Shown: positions 1 to 36,526, counted from the stretch's first letter. The stretch: DNA of 58,016 nucleotides from a bacterium (GCA_030647265.1 JAUSJM010000034.1:1-58016); one strand, 5' to 3'. The notes: generated by a model not told the origin, from the letters alone. Program-made: numbers and translations.

Positions 1-23
1 GATTGAAAATGTAATTTAGCCTC

Positions 24-52
24 TTGCATTATTGGGTCAAATATTGTATATT
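24..52 (+). promoter_or_regulatory. candidate sigma70-type promoter for tuf (TTGCAT-N17-TATATT)
   Basis: ttgcat at 24-29, a 17-nt spacer, tatatt at 47-52. The leader has a small hairpin ccagct/agctgg at 60-75. Confidence 0.4.
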
Positions 53-97
53 TTCCTTACCAGCTGAGTAGCTGGCTTATTTTGCTTAAAAACTAAT

Positions 98-1282
98 ATG
101 GCAGACGCTAAAAAATACGAAAGAACAAAACCGCACGTTAATATTGGCACCATGGGTCATGTGGATCACGGTAAAACCACTTTAACCGCCGCTATCATGA
201 CTGTTTTGGCTGGCAAGGGGCTGGCCCAGAAATCTTCTGTTGATGAGATTGACAACGCTCCTGAGGAAAAAGCTCGTGGTATTACTATTAATATTTCCCA
301 CCGAGAATATGAGACAGAGAAAAGGCACTATGCCCACATTGATATGCCGGGTCACGCCGACTATATCAAAAACATGATTACCGGTGCTGCTCAAACAGAC
401 GGAGCAATTTTGGTAGTGTCTGCTCCTGATGGACCCATGCCTCAAACCCGGGAGCACATCCTTTTGGCCCGTCAGGTAGGAGTACCGGCAGTTGTAGTTT
501 ACCTGAATAAAACCGATCAGGTCTCTGATCCGGAGCTTTTGGATTTGGTGGAAGAGGAAGTAAGAGATCTTTTAAAGAAATACCAGTATGATCCTAACTC
601 CCCTATCATCAGAGGTTCAGCCTTGAAGGCTTTGAGTGGTGATCCTGAGGCTGTTAAATCTATCGAAGAGCTGATGAAAGCGGTTGACGAGTGGATTCCT
701 ACTCCTACCCGGGATATTGATAAGCCCTTCCTGATGGCTGTAGAGGATGTTTTCTCTATTAAGGGCCGGGGAACAGTGGTGACGGGAAGAATTGAGAGAG
801 GAAAAGTTAAGGTCAACGAAGAAATTGAAATTATAGGAATCAGACCAACAAAGAAAAGCGTTGTGACTGGAATAGAAATGTTTCATAAAATGCTTGATGA
901 AGGTCAAGCCGGAGATAATGCCGGGATACTTCTTCGCGGTATTGAAAAAGATGATGTGGAGCGCGGTCAGGTGTTGGCTAAACCCGGCTCTATCACTCCT
1001 CACGCTGAATTTGAAGCGGAAGTTTATGTTCTTTCTAAAGAAGAGGGCGGAAGACACACTCCGTTCTTTAAAGGTTACAGACCACAATTCTATATCAGAA
1101 CCACTGACGTGACCGGCGAAGTAATCTTGCCGGAAGGTGTAGAGATGGTGATGCCTGGTGATACCACCAAGATGACAGCTAAGCTTATTACTCCGGTAGC
1201 TATGGAAGAGGGTTTAAGGTTTGCTGTCAGAGAAGGTGGAAAGACAGTGGGAGCTGGGGTAATCACGAAGATTATTAAGTAA
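98..1282 (+). CDS. tuf: translation elongation factor Tu
   Basis: 394-aa ORF with [11 protein letters not shown]-loop, DMPGHADY and NKTD GTPase motifs. Sits directly upstream of rpsJ. Confidence 0.97.
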
Positions 1283-1307
1283 CTAAGAGATAGTTTAGGG
1301 TATTAAG

Positions 1308-1330
1308 AGGGGGCTAAAAGGCCCTTTTTT
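1308..1330 (+). terminator. weak terminator-like element after tuf
   Basis: Short GC stem gggc/gccc (1311-1314 / 1321-1324) followed by a T6 run. Confidence 0.3.
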
Positions 1331-1388
1331 CATGAGGTTGTGGTAGAATATAGCACATTAACAGTAGGAAAAAGTATTTTTAAAAAAT

Positions 1389-1700
1389 ATGGCTAAAGGA
1401 CGTATTCGCGTAAAACTTAAAAGTTATGATCATCGGGTACTCGATAGCACTATCGAGCAGCTTTTGGATACTGCTTTACGTACCGGTGCCAAAATTGTTG
1501 GCCCGATCCCTCTTCCTACTAAAACAGAAAAATTTACTGTTATCCGAGGTACTTCTTCTAACGCTAAAAATTCCCAGGAAGCTTTTGAACTAAAAACCCA
1601 CAAGAGACTGGTAGAAATCGTTGAACCAACAGATAAGACTATTGATAGCCTTATGCATTTGGAATTACCGGCAGGAGTAGACATTGAGATAAAGACGTAA
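1389..1700 (+). CDS. rpsJ: 30S ribosomal protein uS10
   Basis: 103-aa ORF with the uS10-type N-terminus RIRVKLKSYDHRVLD. Lies directly after tuf. Confidence 0.95.
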   Translation: MAKGRIRVKLKSYDHRVLDSTIEQLLDTALRTGAKIVGPIPLPTKTEKFTVIRGTSSNAKNSQEAFELKTHKRLVEIVEPTDKTIDSLMHLELPAGVDIEIKT

Positions 1701-1752
1701 ATAGACTTTGGGGATTTCCCGATAGTCTTTTCTTTTTGCTTTGCAAAAACGT

Positions 1753-1818
1753 AAAACTATTGATTCCTTAATGCACTTGGAACTCCCCGCCGGAGTTGAC
1801 ATCGAAGTCAAGATGTAG
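1753..1818 (+). pseudogene. orphan duplicate of the last 21 codons plus stop of an rpsJ gene
   Basis: Encodes KTIDSLMHLELPAGVDIEVKM*, against KTIDSLMHLELPAGVDIEIKT* for the intact gene at 1635-1700. There is no upstream rpsJ-like reading frame. Confidence 0.8.
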
Positions 1819-2112
1819 GATTCTCCCCTACGAAATGTTCTAGTAACCGTTGATCGCTTGCCAGCAAGATTAGCAATAAGTGAGTGGGCATTTCCAAAAC
1901 TTGCTTACCTTGAGCATCCTTGAGAATAAAAGCAAAATTACGGTCCGATAGCATCTGGAGACTTTTTCTTAATAATAGTGCCTGACGGGTGATTTCGCTT
2001 ATACTCTATTAGTTTTTATAGCCTCTGTCCTAAGAGATTCCTGAAGTTCTGGTTCCAAGTCAATTGTTATTCTTATTCTTTTAGATGTGTTGTCAAGGCG
2101 TTCTCCAGACAT
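1808..2112 (-). pseudogene. frameshifted ribbon-helix-helix (CopG/Arc-type) antitoxin-like gene
   Basis: Hand translation gives ATG 2112, MSGERLDNTSKRIRITIDLEPELQESLRTEAIKTNRV*, stop at 1999. It continues in another frame as SISEITRQALLLRKSLQ... down to 1808. Joined, the pieces form a typical RHH strand-helix-helix. An AGGGGGA Shine-Dalgarno lies upstream. Confidence 0.45.
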
Positions 2113-2177
2113 TCCCCCTATTATAGGGTACAAATACGATTTGTCAACTTTCGTTTTTGAGGCTAGGGATTTTTAGC

Positions 2178-2206
2178 TTGACACATTAAAGGTGTAAGGC
2201 TAAATA
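2178..2206 (+). promoter_or_regulatory. candidate promoter TTGACA-N17-TAAATA inside the rpsJ-rplC insert
   Basis: ttgaca at 2178-2183, a 17-nt spacer, taaata at 2201-2206. It faces the DUF4258-like/DUF2283 pair. Confidence 0.4.
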
Positions 2207-2229
2207 TTGTCCTATGCTATCATAAAGAT

Positions 2230-2397
2230 GTGAGAATTCTTTTGACACTTCATGTTCATGAGAAGCTTCAGGAGAAGGATGCGAAGCTACTAAAAATTAC
2301 CAAGAAGAAGATCCTGGCAGTTCTCTCACATCCTGATAAGATTAATCGGACTAATTATCCAGCAGAGAAAGGAAGATATGAAAGTAAAGTATTTTGA
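2230..2397 (+). CDS. short DUF4258-like toxin candidate (GTG start, 55 aa, possibly truncated)
   Basis: Hand translation: VRILLTLHVHEKLQEKDAKLLKITKKKILAVLSHPDKINRTNYPAEKGRYESKVF*. It shows the H..EKL...I....IL.VL..PD pattern and overlaps the DUF2283 start by 20 nt. Absent from the ORF track. Confidence 0.3.
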   Translation: MRILLTLHVHEKLQEKDAKLLKITKKKILAVLSHPDKINRTNYPAEKGRYESKVF

Positions 2398-2626
2398 AGA
2401 CGCTGATTTGTTAAGCTTTCGTATTAGTAATGAGCCATACAAGTACGCTCGTCAGTTTGATGATGTCATTATTCACTACAGTGCAAAAAAGGAACCGGTT
2501 TTAATTGAGGTGATTGACGCGGCGAAGTTCCTCAAAAAGACTACCCACCTGTTACCTAAAAAGGTCCAGGCTAAAATTTGGCCTGGGAGAGTTTCCACCC
2601 CAGTTGCTCACCAAATTAAGCGTTGA
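2378..2626 (+). CDS. DUF2283-family small protein (usual partner of DUF4258)
   Basis: 82-aa ORF. The N-terminus MKVKYFEDADLLSFRIS resembles the DUF2283 consensus (MKI.YD.EADALYI.L). Confidence 0.55.
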   Translation: MKVKYFEDADLLSFRISNEPYKYARQFDDVIIHYSAKKEPVLIEVIDAAKFLKKTTHLLPKKVQAKIWPGRVSTPVAHQIKR

Positions 2627-2720
2627 TATCTTTCTCTTGCAATCTAGCTTCAAGCTATGCTACAATCCGGATACACCATGGAGTGGAAATAGAATAAAAA
2701 CAATTTTTCAGTAAATTGTG

Positions 2721-2755
2721 CGTCCTGAGCGAGTGTAAACGAGTCTAAGGATACG
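2721..2755. repeat. CCTGAGC...AAGGA hairpin-repeat copy (variant)
   Basis: cgtcctgagcgagtgtaaacgagtctaaggatacg. It shares the CCTGAG / CGA..AAGGA ends with the copies at 2781-2815, 14619-14663, 30427-30446 and 51440-51457. Confidence 0.5.
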
Positions 2756-2780
2756 ACAATTGAAGGTGTGCACAATTGCT

Positions 2781-2820
2781 GAGTGAGACCCTGAGCAAAG
2801 TCGAAGGGCTCACTCTTTTT
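2781..2820 (+). terminator. intrinsic-terminator-like hairpin (also a copy of the CCTGAGC..GAAGGG repeat)
   Basis: gagtgagaccct (2781-2792) pairs with agggctcactc (2805-2815): 11 bp with one bulge and a 12-nt loop gagcaaagtcga. It is followed by T5 and then T6. It ends 15 nt before the rplC ATG. Confidence 0.6.
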
Positions 2821-2834
2821 AATGGCTTTTTTAT

Positions 2835-3626
2835 ATGATTAATACTTTATTGGGAATAAAAAAGAATATGACATCTACCTATGATGCCCGGGGCAGAAGG
2901 GTGGGAGCTACTGTAGTGGAAGTTATGCCTAATTTTGTGACCCAGGTAAAGACTGCTGACAGCAAAGATGGCTATGAGGCAGTGCAATTAGGGCTAGGAA
3001 GCAAAAAATCTGTCCGAAAACCTCAACTAGGTCATCTTAAAAAAGCCGGAGTAGATCAAAAAGTAAGATGGCTTAGAGAAGTAAGAGAAGATATGGCAGA
3101 TGTCAAATTAGGAGACTCAGTTGAAGTCTCCTCTGTTTTTTCTAAGGGTGACGCTGTCAAAGTGACTGGTATATCCAAGGGTCGGGGTTTTCAGGGAGGA
3201 GTCAGACGTTATGGTTTTGCAGGAGGTCCTAAAACTCACGGCCAGTCAGACAGGCACCGGGCTCCCGGTTCCATTGGTTCCGGCACTACCCCGGGGAGAG
3301 TTTTAAAAGGTAAAAGGATGGCCGGGCATATGGGAGCAGCTACGGTTTCCGTCCGAGGTTTAGAGGTGGTAGAGGTAGACAAAAGTAAAAATTTGTTAAT
3401 TATTAAGGGAGGAATCCCCGGAGCTACCGGTTCCTTGGTCAGTATTTCTAAACTGGGAAGAATTAAAGGTTATACTCCCCCTCCGGAAGAGAAACCAGAG
3501 GAGGAAGAGGAATCTGAGGAGAAAAAGGTAGAGGCAGGTGCTAGCGAGGCAGAAGGACAAACTGCAATTGAAGCAGAAGCAGCAGAAACACCAGAAGTAA
3601 AGGAGGGAGCAGAAAATGCCGGTTAA
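2835..3626 (+). CDS. rplC: 50S ribosomal protein uL3 with an acidic C-terminal tail
   Basis: 263 aa with the uL3 core (KGRGFQGGVRRYGF, GHMG). The last ~50 aa are an E/A-rich extension. Confidence 0.95.
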   Translation: MINTLLGIKKNMTSTYDARGRRVGATVVEVMPNFVTQVKTADSKDGYEAVQLGLGSKKSVRKPQLGHLKKAGVDQKVRWLREVREDMADVKLGDSVEVSSVFSKGDAVKVTGISKGRGFQGGVRRYGFAGGPKTHGQSDRHRAPGSIGSGTTPGRVLKGKRMAGHMGAATVSVRGLEVVEVDKSKNLLIIKGGIPGATGSLVSISKLGRIKGYTPPPEEKPEEEEESEEKKVEAGASEAEGQTAIEAEAAETPEVKEGAENAG

Positions 3627-4386
3627 AAAGTCTCCGCCAAAGGCGGATCAGCCTGTGGCTGAAAAAGTAAAAGAAACAAAAACTAAAAAAGTGACTGCTA
3701 AGGTAGCTAGGCCAAGAAGTGTAGCAGTAGGTTTGTCTGTCCCTGTGTACAGCCTGGAGGGCAAGGAAAGCGGAACCTTAAGCCTACCTAAAGAAATTTT
3801 TGGGGGAGCTGTTAATAAGGTTCTCCTGTCCCAGGCCTTAAGGGTTTATATGAATAACCAAAAGACCCATTTTGCCCATACCAAGACCCGTTCTGAGGTT
3901 AAAGTTTCCACCAGAAAAATTTACCGCCAGAAAGGTACAGGAGGAGCCAGACACGGAGCCAGATCAGCTCCGATTTTTGTGGGCGGAGGAGTGGCTTTGG
4001 GACCGAAGTTTAGAAAAGTGATCTTGGATTTGCCCAAAAAGATGAAACAAAAGGCATTACTGGCAGCCCTTTCTTCCAAGGTGCAGGCCAAAGAAGCAGT
4101 AGGGATAGAAGGTTTAGATAAAGCTTCCGGAAAAACCAGCCAGATGCAAAAATTAATGAAGGGGCTCTCTAAAAATGGTGCTTTTTTAGCAAAAAGTAAC
4201 GCTCTGCTGGCTTTGGGAGAAAAAAATGATCAGGTTGTCCGGGCTGCCAGGAATTTACCGGGCTTAGATATTTTACCAGTAGAGCAGCTGAATGCTTTGG
4301 AGGTTATGTCACATCAAACTTTGATCTTAACTAAGGAAGCAGTAGTAAAACTTTCCACTAAAGTTCAAGGAGAGGTAAAATCATGA
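3616..4386 (+). CDS. rplD: 50S ribosomal protein uL4 with a basic N-terminal extension
   Basis: 256 aa with the uL4 core (RQKGTGGARHG). It has a ~40-aa K-rich N-terminus and overlaps rplC by 11 nt. Confidence 0.93.
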   Translation: MPVKKSPPKADQPVAEKVKETKTKKVTAKVARPRSVAVGLSVPVYSLEGKESGTLSLPKEIFGGAVNKVLLSQALRVYMNNQKTHFAHTKTRSEVKVSTRKIYRQKGTGGARHGARSAPIFVGGGVALGPKFRKVILDLPKKMKQKALLAALSSKVQAKEAVGIEGLDKASGKTSQMQKLMKGLSKNGAFLAKSNALLALGEKNDQVVRAARNLPGLDILPVEQLNALEVMSHQTLILTKEAVVKLSTKVQGEVKS

Positions 4387-4766
4387 ATATCATCTTAAGA
4401 AAAGCCATTATTTCCGAGAAAGCGATGAAGCAGGCAGGACAAAATCTTTATACTTTTTTGGTAAGCTCTAAGGCCCGGAAGCCGGAGATTGCCAAAGCGG
4501 TTAAGGAAAAGTTCGGAGTAGAGGTCGTGGCAGTAAAAACAGTAAACTTTAAAGAGGGAAGCAAAATGCAGCGGACCAGGAGAAAGTATTTTTCTGTCCC
4601 GGGCTACAAAAAAGCTTTGGTAGCCTTAAAAGATGGACAAAAAATCGCCCTCTTTGAAGCTGAGGCAGCTACGGAACAGGAAGTTGAGCCCAAAGAGGAA
4701 GTCAGAGAAAAAAAGAGCTTGCTTAGAGGTACTAAGGTAAAGATCGAGAAAGGAGGAAAGAAGTAA
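4383..4766 (+). CDS. rplW: 50S ribosomal protein uL23
   Basis: 127 aa with an ATGA overlap onto rplD. Position in the cluster and the uL23 core fit; the C-terminal tail is E/K-rich. Confidence 0.92.
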   Translation: MNIILRKAIISEKAMKQAGQNLYTFLVSSKARKPEIAKAVKEKFGVEVVAVKTVNFKEGSKMQRTRRKYFSVPGYKKALVALKDGQKIALFEAEAATEQEVEPKEEVREKKSLLRGTKVKIEKGGKK

Positions 4767-4767
4767 G

Positions 4768-5586
4768 ATGGCTTTAATGCAGTACAAAGAAAAAACACCT
4801 AGCCGCCGCTTTGCTTCTAAAATGGGCAAACCGGAGAAAAATGAGAACGCTCCCAAGGGGTTGTGGAAGATTTTAGTAAAACACAGCGGTCGTTCTAAGG
4901 GTCGGGTGACAGTGCGCCATCAAGGTGGCAGGCACAAAAGGTACTACCGGGAGATTGATTTTAAACGCAATAAATTTGGGGTGGAAGGTGTTGTTGCTGC
5001 TTTGGAATACGATCCCAACCGCAATGTCGGCATTGCCCTTATAAAATACTCTGATGGGGAATATCGTTATATCCTGGCTCCCCAAGGTCTGAAGGTGGGA
5101 GACAAGGTGGAAGCCGGAGAAAAGGTAGAGATTAGGACGGGCAATGCCATGAGGCTAAAAAGCCTGCCGGTTGGCACGATGGTCCATAATGTGGAGTTGG
5201 TGCCGGGAAAGGGTGGACAGCTGGGAAGAAGTGCTGGAATCTCTTTGGCTTTACAAGCCAAGCAAGCTCCTTTCGCTCACTTGAAAATGCCTTCCGGAGA
5301 GATTAGAATGGTTCCTTTGCAGGCCTTGGCCACCGTAGGGATTTTAGGAAATGAGGACTGGAAGCATATTAACTTTGGTAAAGCAGGAAGAAAAAGACAT
5401 ATGGGAATAAGGCCAACAGTCAGAGGGACTGCTCAAGAACCAAGTTCTCATCCTCATGGTGGTGGTGAAGGAAGATCTGGAGTAGGAAGAAAGAAACCGA
5501 TGACAAAGTACGGCAGACCGGCTGTAGGCAAGACCAGGAAGAAAGGAAAGCAGTCCGGTAGGTATATTATAAAGAGGAGAAAGTAA
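4768..5586 (+). CDS. rplB: 50S ribosomal protein uL2
   Basis: 272 aa with GGRHKRYYR and HPHGGGEGR motifs. Confidence 0.97.
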
Positions 5587-5611
5587 ATATTTTATTTACG
5601 CAAGAAAAAAT

Positions 5612-5896
5612 ATGAGTAGAAGTTTAAAAAAAGGACCATATATTGATGTCAAGTTGATGAAAAAGATCATGGCCCAAAAGTCAGAGGGTCAAAAGAGTGC
5701 TATTAAAACCTGGGCCAGGGCATCACAAATTGCCCCGGAGTTTGTGGGTCATACTTTTATGATCCATAACGGTAAAATTTTTATTTCGGTTTATATAACA
5801 GAGGCCATGGTAGGTCATAGGTTGGGAGAGTTTTCTCCCACGAGAACTTTTAAAGGCCACGGTAAGATGACGGAAAAGTCTACAGCAAAGACATAA
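5612..5896 (+). CDS. rpsS: 30S ribosomal protein uS19
   Basis: 94 aa with SLKKGPYID and HNGK motifs. Confidence 0.96.
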
Positions 5897-5903
5897 AAAG
5901 AAT

Positions 5904-6266
5904 ATGGAAGTAATGACAATACAAAAATATATACATACCTCGCCGAGAAAGCTCAGACTGGTAGCGGATATGGTCAGAAAGATGAAACCTTCCCGGGCTT
6001 TGGTAACTTTACAGTTTGCTAATAAGGCTGCAGCTTTGCCTTTGAAAAAAGCTTTACAGACGGTGTTGGCTGATGCTGAACAAAAAAAGCTTCAGCAGGA
6101 AACGTTGGCTTTTAAAGTTTTGGAGATTAATGAGGGACCAAAGCTTGCCCGTTACCATGCCGGTACCAAGGGACGGGCCAACCCTTATAGACGGAAGATG
6201 AGCCATATCAAAATCGTCTTGACAGACGATTCAAAAGTCTCCGCGATAAAGAAAGGGGAAAAGTAA
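5904..6266 (+). CDS. rplV: 50S ribosomal protein uL22
   Basis: 120 aa with SPRKLRLVADMVR. The start could instead be ATG 5913. Confidence 0.93.
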   Translation: MEVMTIQKYIHTSPRKLRLVADMVRKMKPSRALVTLQFANKAAALPLKKALQTVLADAEQKKLQQETLAFKVLEINEGPKLARYHAGTKGRANPYRRKMSHIKIVLTDDSKVSAIKKGEK

Positions 6267-33897: not shown

Positions 33898-34917
33898 TTA
33901 ATCTTTATTGACAATATTCTCAGGTTTTCCTTCTAGGAAGGAGTTAATATTTTTAACAGTAGTCTCCATGATGGAAAACTCTGCTTCCTTGGTATAAAAG
34001 GCCATGTGGGGGGTAATCAGTACTTGAGGTTGATTAATTAAGATATGGGTTTCTAAAACATTCTTTAAATCTTTTGACTTTAATTTCTTTTTAGATAATA
34101 ACTCTGCTTCTTCTTTTAACTCCCCCTCCTCCTCTAAAACATCCAGGGCTGCCCCAGCTAAATGTTCCTGGGTTAAGGCTTGGAAAAGAGCTTCAGTTTC
34201 TACTACAGCTCCCCGGGCAGTGTTAATAAGTAGACTGCCTTTTTTCATCAAGAAGATATTATCCCGATTAATCAGATGATGGGTCTCTTTCATGTAAGGC
34301 ACATGAAGAGTAACAATGTCAGCAGTTTTTAACAATTCCTCCAAAGAAACATAAGAAAAACTTAAGGTTTTAGAAAGCTCTTCATTGGGGTAAGCATCAC
34401 AAGCTACAACATTCATCTGGAAGCCTTGAGCTATCTTAATAACATTAGCCCCAATCTTGCCTGTCCCTACTACTCCTAAAGTCTTGCCGTTTAAATCAAA
34501 ACCCCGAAGGCCTTCAAAATCAAAATCACAACCGACCTTTAACCTGTTAATTCCCTGATAAATTTTTCGGGAGAGATTCAAGATTAAACCAAAGGCAAAT
34601 TCAGCCACAGTGTGGGAACCATAAGCTGGAACGTTAGCCACTGGAATTTTTTTATCTTTGGCAGCTTTAAGGTCAATGTTATCAAAACCGGTAGATCTGG
34701 CAACAATAAGTTTTAGATTAGGGAAGTGGTTGATAACTTTGGGGGTGACAGCGCAATCTACAAAAACTGAGATAACATCAAAATCTGATTTTTCCGGTAA
34801 AGAGTCTTCGGTGATGGGTTCCGGGAAAAAAGTCAGCTCATGATCAGCAAGACCTTTAGAAAAGTAGCTTTCCTTTTCTGCTTCCTCTACCCCGAAAAAG
34901 GCAATTTTCATATTCAT
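33898..34917 (-). CDS. D-isomer-specific 2-hydroxyacid dehydrogenase (D-lactate dehydrogenase-like)
   Basis: GVVGTGKIGANV Rossmann motif and ...TPHMAFYT. I prefer the MNMKIAFFG start (34917) over the track's 34956. Confidence 0.8.
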   Translation of the reverse strand: MNMKIAFFGVEEAEKESYFSKGLADHELTFFPEPITEDSLPEKSDFDVISVFVDCAVTPKVINHFPNLKLIVARSTGFDNIDLKAAKDKKIPVANVPAYGSHTVAEFAFGLILNLSRKIYQGINRLKVGCDFDFEGLRGFDLNGKTLGVVGTGKIGANVIKIAQGFQMNVVACDAYPNEELSKTLSFSYVSLEELLKTADIVTLHVPYMKETHHLINRDNIFLMKKGSLLINTARGAVVETEALFQALTQEHLAGAALDVLEEEGELKEEAELLSKKKLKSKDLKNVLETHILINQPQVLITPHMAFYTKEAEFSIMETTVKNINSFLEGKPENIVNKD

Positions 34918-35620: not shown

Positions 35621-36526
35621 ATGAAGAAAATTGTAGTGCCCCAGAACATGTCTTTTTACCCAGATCAAATTGAGAGATTAAAGTCCTTAGGAGAAACAAC
35701 CATTTATAATGATATGCCGACCCCGGAGGAATGGTTTGAGCGTTGTAAAGATGCTGACATAATCTGTACAGGTGAGGTAGGTATGGAAACAAGAGGTTAT
35801 GAATTAAGAAACAAATACTTTTCTCTTCCCATGGTGGGAACAGGGTGGTTAGATTTGCCGAGACTTAAGGAAGGTGGGAACTCTCTTTCCAATAGTCCTG
35901 GATGTAACAAAGAGGCTGTTTCAGAATGGATTATAGGCATGATGATTTATATGCTCAGACAATTTGACAGGCTTATCGGGGTAACCAATAAGAGTAAGCA
36001 AGAAGTATTTAAAAGATCTCCAGGTTTAGCAGGTAAAAATGTGACTGTTTTAGGGAAAGGAAATATTGGTTCTAGGGTTGGAGAAATATGTAAAGTTATG
36101 GGGATGGATGTTACCTATTTTCAAAGAGGTGATGATTTATTGGAAAAGACTAAAGATGCTGATGTAGTAGTAAGTTGCCTTAAGGTAGAGCCTTCTACAA
36201 AAAACTTACTTGATAAAAAATTCTTCAATTCACTAAAAAAGGGATCATATTTTATAATTATTACTGCTTCTTCAATTTATGATATTGATGCAATGTTTGA
36301 GGCTTTAGATAAGGAAATATTAGCAGGGGTGGCAGATGATTCAGCTGGAATGCCTGTAGCAGAGGCGGATAATCCCTACTATTTAAAATTAATAAGTCAC
36401 CCTAAAGTTGTAGCAACTCCTCATATTGCTTTTAACACTGATGCTACATCCAGAAAAGCTAATGATATTATGATAGACAATGTCGGAAACTGGATTAAAG
36501 GTAAGCCTTCAAATATTGTTATTTAA
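35621..36526 (+). CDS. 2-hydroxyacid dehydrogenase family protein (second paralog)
   Basis: 301 aa with the GKNVTVLGKGNIGSRVG NAD motif and ATPHIAFNT. Confidence 0.6.
   Translation: MKKIVVPQNMSFYPDQIERLKSLGETTIYNDMPTPEEWFERCKDADIICTGEVGMETRGYELRNKYFSLPMVGTGWLDLPRLKEGGNSLSNSPGCNKEAVSEWIIGMMIYMLRQFDRLIGVTNKSKQEVFKRSPGLAGKNVTVLGKGNIGSRVGEICKVMGMDVTYFQRGDDLLEKTKDADVVVSCLKVEPSTKNLLDKKFFNSLKKGSYFIIITASSIYDIDAMFEALDKEILAGVADDSAGMPVAEADNPYYLKLISHPKVVATPHIAFNTDATSRKANDIMIDNVGNWIKGKPSNIVI

Follow-up and report, generated by a model that had tools for sequence, protein, structure and literature searches.

A second 3′ end behind the intact rpsJ of a Daviesbacteria-like bacterium, probably the scar of a C-terminal displacement

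Introduction

How does a bacterium come to carry, 52 nt past the stop codon of an intact rpsJ, a second and diverged copy of the last codons of that gene? The question is raised by a stretch of bacterial DNA of 58,016 nucleotides (JAUSJM010000034.1; the whole stretch is hereafter called the window), in which the gene for ribosomal protein S10 is followed by such a fragment. The original prediction held that the fragment had evolved as part of a functional but different rpsJ before landing at its present position, that it should be read as a recombination or integration scar rather than as a recent in-situ duplication, and that scars of this kind are rare in the most conserved operon of a genome. 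Here, the two gene ends were compared with each other and with the corresponding loci of relatives, which showed the junction to be real and the arrangement to recur; the pair is probably the scar of a C-terminal displacement that resulted from recombination with the rpsJ locus of another lineage.

Results

The features of the window, and the displaced rpsJ ends of its relatives, are compiled in Table 1. The product of rpsJ matched the Pfam family Ribosomal_S10 (1.6e-32) with positions 1–98 of the 98 in the profile covered. Its residues 1–82 are of the type found in the close clade (RLVEIVEPTD), and the gene as it stands is probably a hybrid. The closest S10 proteins (up to 94% identity) came from metagenome contigs, and the named relatives are Candidatus Daviesbacteria of the CPR/Microgenomates group. 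The relatives' loci comprised the nearest S10 genes with their flanks and 80 metagenome loci obtained with a degenerate gene-end pattern; the close clade was delimited at an S10 identity of 76% or more, and distant CPR relatives were those below 73%. When genome contigs were searched with the S10 protein, the matches listed belonged to Chloroflexota, Actinomycetota and similar bacteria (≤65% identity) and were reused as control. Altogether, the duplicate-negative controls numbered 128 (48 distant CPR loci and 80 non-CPR genomes).

Table 1. Features of the window and displaced rpsJ ends in close-clade relatives (positions in nucleotides of the window, or relative to the live stop codon and to the rpsJ codon at the junction).
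Feature	Position	Strand	Description
tuf	98–1282		window
rpsJ (ribosomal protein S10)	1389–1700	+	103-aa ORF, intact
Live rpsJ 3′ end	1635–1700	+	codons 83–103 plus TAA, ending IKT
Spacer between copies	1701–1752	+	52 nt, no ORF
Displaced copy of rpsJ 3′ end	1753–1818	+	21 codons plus TAG, ending VKM
Ribbon-helix-helix (RHH; CopG-type) gene, frameshifted	1808–2112	−	ORFs 2133..1999 and 1954..1808; converges on the fragment
Sigma-70-type promoter of the RHH gene	2120–2147	−	TTGACA-16-TATAAT, 12/12 consensus
55-aa remnant of the 85–87-aa partner gene of DUF2283 cassettes	2230–2397	+	roughly the middle 38 residues missing
DUF2283 gene	2378–2626	+	82 aa, intact; antitoxin-like cargo; Pfam PF10049 (9.8e-9)
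Native rplC operon promoter	2637–2666	+	TTGCAA-18-TACAAT with extended TG; conserved in relatives' spacers
Structured leader with terminator hairpin before rplC	2705–2820	+	from alignment; native spacer, not scar
rplC (L3)	2835–3626	+	ORF; PF00297 on the identical Logan contig; normal downstream neighbour of rpsJ
Displaced copy, L083/L084 (two runs)	88 nt after live stop; junction codon 83		20/21 aa; last 28 nt identical to live copy
Displaced copy, L174	33 nt after live stop; junction codon 83		21/21 aa; 12 synonymous codon differences
Displaced copy, L095	814 nt after live stop; junction codon 89		16 codons; 4 synonymous and 0 non-synonymous differences
Displaced copy, L169	652 nt after live stop, behind 182-aa ORF; junction codon 89		16 codons; 2 residue changes
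Displaced copies, L170	one behind GIY-YIG gene, one fused to DUF2283 end; junction codons 92/93		two stacked fragments
Displaced copy, L085	behind 126-aa ORF; junction at or before codon 79		decayed, with indels and stops

The live end and the fragment translate as KTIDSLMHLELPAGVDIEIKT and KTIDSLMHLELPAGVDIEVKM, respectively, each followed by a stop. They were identical at 49 of 66 bases and at 19 of 21 residues, and both figures, which had been claimed from a hand alignment, were exact on recomputation. Differences at codon positions 1, 2 and 3 numbered 4, 2 and 11. Ten codons differed synonymously, every pair listed in the original prediction being correct, and the stop codons differed besides (TAA/TAG); as likewise claimed, only two pairs were non-synonymous (live/fragment: ATA/GTC, I/V, and ACG/ATG, T/M). 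The Nei–Gojobori estimates were 0.77 for pS, which is saturated, and 0.12 for pN. When neutral decay was simulated with 16 random substitutions, none of 100,000 runs gave two or fewer residue changes without a stop (P < 1e-5). Thus, the predicted signature of purifying selection held: the two copies belonged to distinct rpsJ alleles, both functional, while such selection acted on their divergence, and with neutral decay rejected, the reading as a scar rather than a recent duplication in situ is borne out.

Similarity between the copies sets in at 1634 and 1752, one T being common to both before the K codon and nothing further upstream. A repeat search of the window returned the same pair (1634–1699 and 1752–1817, 76%), which is also the sole short peptide-level duplicate within the 58 kb. 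The longest run common to both copies comprises 9 nt (ACTATTGAT) and is located just past the junction. The fragment has no plausible start of its own; a TTG at 1741 is the sole in-frame candidate, and by eye no Shine-Dalgarno-like run was visible ahead of it.

The junction is real and reproducible, and no assembly artefact. A Logan contig produced by another assembler (SRR13727527_270417; L001) was 100% identical to positions 1045–3662 of the window (2,618 nt), and since no more than nine consecutive bases are common to the two copies, a k-mer graph could not have joined them by mistake. The same architecture was also encountered in other samples and assemblies (L083 and L084, which stem from two different runs, and contigs from NCBI, ENA and JGI).

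Displaced rpsJ ends were present in seven close-clade lineages (the window, L083/84, L174, L095, L169, L170 and L085; Table 1) and missing from the other close-clade loci examined (roughly 30 distinct arrangements). No such duplicate was present in the 48 distant CPR loci, nor in the 80 genomes from Chloroflexota, Actinomycetota and other non-CPR groups. With seven lineages carrying one, the notion that scars like this are rare does not hold within this clade. The same distribution, with the duplicate missing from other members of the clade and from 128 of 128 controls, rules out a conserved cis-regulatory leader; the original prediction had named a structured leader conserved in all relatives as an objection to itself, and the leader that is truly conserved is the one directly before rplC (2705–2820). 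In the intact pairs (window, L083/84, L174 and L095), the differences were almost all synonymous, with a dN/dS of 0.035 between the live end and the fragment of L083/84. The fragment of L169 has begun to decay, as its residue changes show. The gradation from intact copies to decayed ones speaks for the downstream copies being dead remnants.

The displaced copy of L174 (1415–1515) is in frame with the live gene, from which it is separated by the TAG and 11 sense codons, so that a ribosome reading through the stop would add another S10 C-terminus to the protein; its junction is a palindrome (GTCTT followed by AAGAC). In L095, a sigma-70 region 4 ORF, an 87-aa ORF and a DUF2283 gene are located between the live stop and the second copy.

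Overall, four junction positions were observed: codon 83 in three lineages, codon 89 in two, codons 92/93, and one at or before codon 79. The codon-83 junction was identical to the base in the window, L083/84 and L174, which do not form a clade. A single ancestral duplication common to these lineages was rejected because the three do not group in the neighbour-joining tree, which is star-like, and because the copies show no clustering by position (the live end of the window is nearest the fragment of L174, and the live end of L174 nearest the fragment of L083). The codon-83 spacers are short and devoid of ORFs (52, 88 and 33 nt in the window, L083/84 and L174, respectively), each with a GC hairpin after the stop; in the window, a terminator scan marked a hairpin at 1708–1722, together with a T run, as weakly terminator-like. 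No sequence similar to the 52-nt spacer was present in any fetched locus.

Within this spacer, positions 1722–1733 (ATAGTCTTtTCT) constitute a short inverted copy of the live junction codons (11/12 match, which 0 of 300 shuffles reached), and in the minimum-energy fold of the window this stretch pairs with AAAGAC near the stop instead. An inverted copy of live codons 83–84, 12–21 nt past the stop, was present in the window, L083 and L174 and covaries with the third base of codon 84 (T/A/G). It is strong in L083 (13/13, with a stem in the minimum-energy fold; z −3.1), moderate in the window and weak in L174, the stem being outside the minimum-energy fold of the latter two. Pairing at long range between codon 83 and the spacer was rejected as a general feature of the RNA, the stem being convincing in L083 only. 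The inverted copy may point to a site-specific mini-element, or to a hairpin by which the breakpoint is determined.

The region into which the fragments were displaced is itself variable. The distance from rpsJ to rplC was 100–150 nt in most distant CPR relatives compared with 210–5,157 nt in the close clade, where the shortest spacers (210–240 nt) are made up of two conserved elements, a promoter (TTGCxT ... TGCTAcAAT) and, with a terminator hairpin at its end, a structured leader that the whole close clade shares. Many close-clade lineages carry 0.3–5 kb of unrelated cargo between the rpsJ stop and the rplC promoter: sigma-70 region 4 ORFs directly after rpsJ, small GIY-YIG genes flanked by hairpin repeats, Hsp70-like genes, glycosidases, the pair of an 85–87-aa gene and a DUF2283 gene and, judged from sequence alone, genes resembling a HicAB pair and an IS200/RAYT-type transposase (the L145 spacer gene resembles the latter type, on the same grounds). 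L177 and L178 are 1 nt apart in rpsJ, differ at 0 of 190 nt upstream, and are unrelated from the stop codon onward. The S10–L3 junction is, in this clade, an insertion hot spot and a fast-turning cargo bay. L177, L178, L176 and L179 encode an identical S10 protein (P0010) and have three different genes directly past the stop.

GIY-YIG genes directly follow rpsJ in four lineages and are once located between two copies (L170, PF01541); they lie on the opposite strand and encode proteins of about 90 aa that consist of the catalytic domain only. Small ORFs begin 4–14 nt past the rpsJ stop in L085 (4313–4693), L095 (2483–2749) and L147 (117–608), two of the three being located between a live and a displaced rpsJ end. 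Those of L095 (8e-6) and L147 (9e-11) matched Pfam Sigma70_r4; the 126-aa ORF of L085 has no Pfam match itself and is related to the sigma-70 region 4 ORFs (BLASTP to the L147 ORF, 2.6e-6).

In the window, the cargo begins with the RHH gene, the end of which overlaps the last 11 nt of the fragment. Three-frame translation yielded one continuous protein after a 1-nt frame repair, and the repaired protein matched Pfam RHH_1 (1.3e-4; 22.2 bits against a cut-off of 20.5). The frameshift, a single base near 1995–2000, could reflect a pseudogene, a sequencing error or a programmed shift; a partner toxin gene for the RHH gene is not present. The 55-aa remnant resembles the 87-aa ORF of L082 at its N-terminus (37% over 35 aa) and that of L095 at its C-terminus (57% over 14 aa). 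Neither Pfam nor NCBIfam gave a match for the 55-aa and 85–87-aa ORFs or the 126-aa ORF of L085. Homologous DUF2283 cassettes reside in the rpsJ–rplC spacer of L082, L095 and L170 (34–41% identity for L082 and L095), in all of which the partner gene encodes 85–87 aa. An intact DUF2283 gene next to a truncated partner would be the usual pattern of a decaying toxin–antitoxin pair that keeps its antitoxin. The DUF2283 stop is 10 nt from the native rplC promoter.

For the rplC leader, RNAalifold on 16 relatives gave 23 pairs, six of them with compensatory changes; an Rfam search of window positions 1–6000, which include the leader, had no match at E ≤ 1. Its 5′ segment CAGTARATYGYGC has two alternative pairing partners further downstream, after which comes the terminator hairpin CTGAGTGAG...CTCACTCTTTTT, and the leader looks like an attenuator for the L3-L4-L23-L2 genes. 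Hairpin repeats of the form (G)TC(A)TCCTGAGCG-N-CGAAGGA(TC) occur on either side of the rpsJ-adjacent GIY-YIG genes of relatives (L170, at 672–700 and about 990–1025; flanks in L134, L115 and L093) and are also located inside variable loops of the rplC leader in the window (2718–2750 and 2786–2806), L083, L106, L090 and L153; they look like REP-like mobile hairpins. A candidate third, decayed rpsJ copy at about 2640–2700 (local alignment 40 versus a null of 27 ± 3.6) was rejected, since it aligns with the native promoter and spacer of relatives. Elsewhere in the window, 33910–34692 (− strand) and 35840–36520 (+ strand) encode divergent paralogues (26% identity over about 260 aa), judging by their sequence of the 2-hydroxyacid dehydrogenase type.

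Which of the two ends arrived last was assessed from several sides. Of the 120 closest S10 proteins, 96 end in VKM, the consensus of the clade; IKT occurs in two of them, namely the window and P0029/L085, and L085 has a VKM-type remnant behind its inserted ORF. The identity to close-clade genes was 51.4 of 66 for the fragment versus 48.6 for the live end (Wilcoxon p 4e-4, on non-independent data and with synonymous sites saturated), and distant genes were equally near both copies. The best nucleotide matches of the live end were in distant lineages (L108, 56/66; L129, 55/66) and those of the fragment in close-clade genes (L095, 57/66; L101, 56/66). Between the window and L083, in which the fragment is at the native distance from the rplC promoter, the 5′ part of the gene was 82.5% identical, the fragments agreed at 49/66 and the live ends, further below, at 45/66. 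Both copies are 68–86% identical to almost any S10 gene end, and nucleotide comparison cannot polarise the event because it is near saturation. Codon usage was rejected as a polarising test, since both copies fit the window (p 0.19 and 0.28); C-ending codons make up 8 of 21 in the fragment, a somewhat high share next to the 17% of the genome and one that would suit an imported fragment. Also counting against the live end as newcomer is that the cargo is placed after the fragment and not between the copies. Among the fetched loci, there was no donor above 86% over 66 nt for either copy, including the rpsJ end matching 1753–1818 that the original prediction had proposed to seek, and no match to the 52-nt spacer or to 1819–2640.

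The live end (IKT) was likely the latest arrival and the fragment (VKM) the earlier end. That the fragment is the piece that landed here, as originally predicted, is therefore doubtful: its ending is the consensus, it is slightly nearer to close relatives, and the ending of the live copy is otherwise seen in L085 only. The fragment itself may have come in earlier with the cargo behind it, and a two-step history reconciles the evidence for and against the live end as newcomer.

Discussion

The pair of gene ends is probably a C-terminal displacement scar that arose by recombination with the rpsJ locus of another lineage. Foreign rpsJ DNA would have recombined into the gene, with the result that the last 21 codons of one allele are now live and those of the other allele lie dead 52 nt downstream. 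As to the order of events, their direction and the enzymology, we infer the following. In a first step, toxin–antitoxin-like cargo (the RHH gene, the 85–87-aa gene and the DUF2283 gene) would have been placed between the then-live end, now at 1753–1818, and the rplC promoter. In a second step, about 118 nt (1635–1752), comprising a foreign rpsJ end of the IKT type and the 52 nt with their small hairpin, would have been inserted at codon 83, pushing the former end beyond the reading frame. The left join would have used homology in the conserved gene, and the right join would have been illegitimate or site-specific; the process would be comparable to homology-facilitated illegitimate recombination or to the arrival of a small element equipped with a replacement gene end of its own. 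Against such a displacement speaks that no recombinase or nuclease gene is located between the copies of the window and that no donor was found. A further point against it is the codon-83 junction common to three lineages, which random illegitimate joining would not predict.

The opposite polarity, in which the live end and the 52 nt are native and a foreign piece of rpsJ was inserted together with its cargo (1753–2626) 52 nt past the stop, is structurally possible because the cargo follows the fragment instead of separating the copies. It would agree with the fragment still being attached to a cargo type that directly follows rpsJ in L082, with the abundance of C-ending codons in the fragment, and with the native stop–promoter distance of 2 to 70 nt, within which 52 + 10 nt would fall; the low identity among the cassettes of the window, L082 and L095 moreover indicates that these were acquired separately. 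Such an import would, however, require V to have become I and M to have become T within the otherwise strongly conserved last three residues, and the only other gene ending in IKT, that of L085, has its VKM-type copy displaced. L083 and L174 share the codon-83 junction without any cargo able to carry a fragment, and it is the live copy that the inverted stretch in the spacer matches, a stretch which relatives without duplicates lack. On balance, we consider the import of fragment and cargo unlikely.

A special case of the displacement would be an ORF-less mini-element of about 100–150 nt that inserts specifically at rpsJ codon 83 and carries a recoded S10 C-terminus, a stop and a hairpin; it might be a degenerate homing-endonuclease element or a non-autonomous element moved in trans. 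Suggestive of this are the identical junction in three lineages that are not one clade, their short, ORF-less spacers with a GC hairpin after the stop, the inverted copy of the live junction that covaries with codon 84, and the GIY-YIG genes that follow rpsJ in relatives and once separate two copies. Yet no copy of such an element was found elsewhere, the three spacers are not alike, and no codon-83 case keeps an ORF; the long-range stem is clear in L083 only and not part of the minimum-energy fold of the window or L174, and no homing activity is known for the short GIY-YIG proteins here. A mini-element, in either form, is thus a rather doubtful proposition.

The duplication could also be old, with the downstream copy kept by selection because it is used, for instance as an alternative C-terminus or as a small peptide. 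The fragments of the window, L083 and L174 are indeed intact, with 0–1 non-consensus residues and mutual differences that are almost only synonymous, and that of L174 is in frame with the live gene. Copies retained for use would nevertheless be at odds with the lack of clustering by position, with spacers that are out of frame in the window (52 nt) and L083 (88 nt), with the fragment's lack of a visible Shine-Dalgarno-like run, with the decayed examples in L085 and L169, and with the many close relatives, the majority, that do without a copy; this explanation is highly improbable. A tandem duplication in situ with subsequent drift, or a chimeric assembly from two strains, would account for copies that are direct and near-tandem but is scarcely credible given the rejection of neutral decay, a 52-nt spacer that (by eye) is not repeated past the fragment, the shortness of the runs common to both copies, the identical contig from an independent assembler and the same architecture in other samples and assemblies.

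A displacement of this kind has counterparts in other systems. It has been shown for the mobile-ORF (mORF, homing-endonuclease) gene hybrids of fungal mitochondria, namely for atp6 of Allomyces macrogynus and for atp6, atp9, cox2 and nad3 of Glomus sp., where the live copy upstream was the one imported (PMC3630166), which favours the live end as the newcomer here too. As in these hybrids, an inserted in-frame C-terminus is followed by element DNA and then by the displaced native C-terminus, an arrangement that the window displays with its live end and fragment; the C-termini are far apart in nucleotides and nearly identical in protein; and the event recurs in related lineages. The endonuclease ORF between the copies is absent from the window, where 52 ORF-less nt separate them, and has an equivalent only in L170 with its GIY-YIG gene. 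The systems differ in that a bacterial chromosome and an essential ribosomal protein gene are concerned here, and in that the small GIY-YIG genes of the relatives, on the opposite strand, are putative endonucleases.

The displacement of C-termini in Rhs/CDI systems and the sequential displacement of effector–immunity modules of the T6SS in Vibrio cholerae have been proposed to proceed via homology-facilitated illegitimate recombination (PMC5361080). There, too, a conserved 5′ part serves as anchor, and the old end, along with its partner genes, is driven downstream by the 3′ module that comes in; the window likewise shows a 5′ anchor, a divergent 3′ module and an old 3′ piece with its former neighbours. 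Stacked orphans, as in L170, and toxin–antitoxin-like cargo are further points of likeness. The arrays of several displaced pieces are not matched by the window, which has one fragment, and L170 has two. In contrast to these systems, one junction is common to three lineages here, and the displaced piece encodes the same protein sequence and no new toxin, so there is no obvious selective gain from the swap itself.

DNA integrated by phage 21/e14 supplies a synonymous-variant 3′ end to icd, by which the essential gene stays intact and its old end comes to lie at the far junction. The att site concerned is located in icd of E. coli (cited in PMC12803456). The likeness consists in a replacement 3′ end made of synonymous variants, with the old end kept downstream; the difference is that no integrase, phage genes or element body are present here. 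No ORF, and hence no tyrosine or serine recombinase gene, is contained in 1701–1752, and the ORFs between copies in relatives gave no match to recombinase families among those scanned; what the relatives have between the copies are sigma-70 region 4 ORFs, the pair of an 87-aa gene and DUF2283, a GIY-YIG gene and unassigned ORFs. The 9-nt run common to both copies just after the junction is long enough for an att-like core and proves nothing. A search of 2.9 million viral contigs with the degenerate gene-end pattern MHLELPAGVDIE had no match. Events of the type recorded at this locus are known, but its place and form are unusual, with an essential ribosomal gene as target, no ORF between the copies and a common junction.

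The most conserved bacterial operon appears to be open to foreign DNA, with the end of rpsJ repeatedly overwritten by alleles of other lineages in one CPR clade, and what follows the gene can be unrelated even between strains whose rpsJ differs by a single base. This is of consequence for concatenated ribosomal-protein phylogenies, because their genes can be chimeric. There is also a bearing on genome binning and strain tracking in the CPR, and on how streamlined, possibly competent episymbionts gain toxin–antitoxin and other accessory genes. The common codon-83 junction offers a concrete and testable target for a site-specific mechanism. Tentatively, and with a good deal of doubt, a family of tiny ORF-less insertions (about 100–150 nt) might target codon 83 of rpsJ in Daviesbacteria-like bacteria and be rendered harmless by the recoded last 21 codons, stop and hairpin that they bring along. 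If true, the codon-83 insertions would be the bacterial equivalent, free of any endonuclease, of the mobile ORFs of mitochondria with their replacement gene ends, and a gene-cassette bay within the S10 operon would have the end of rpsJ as its docking site.
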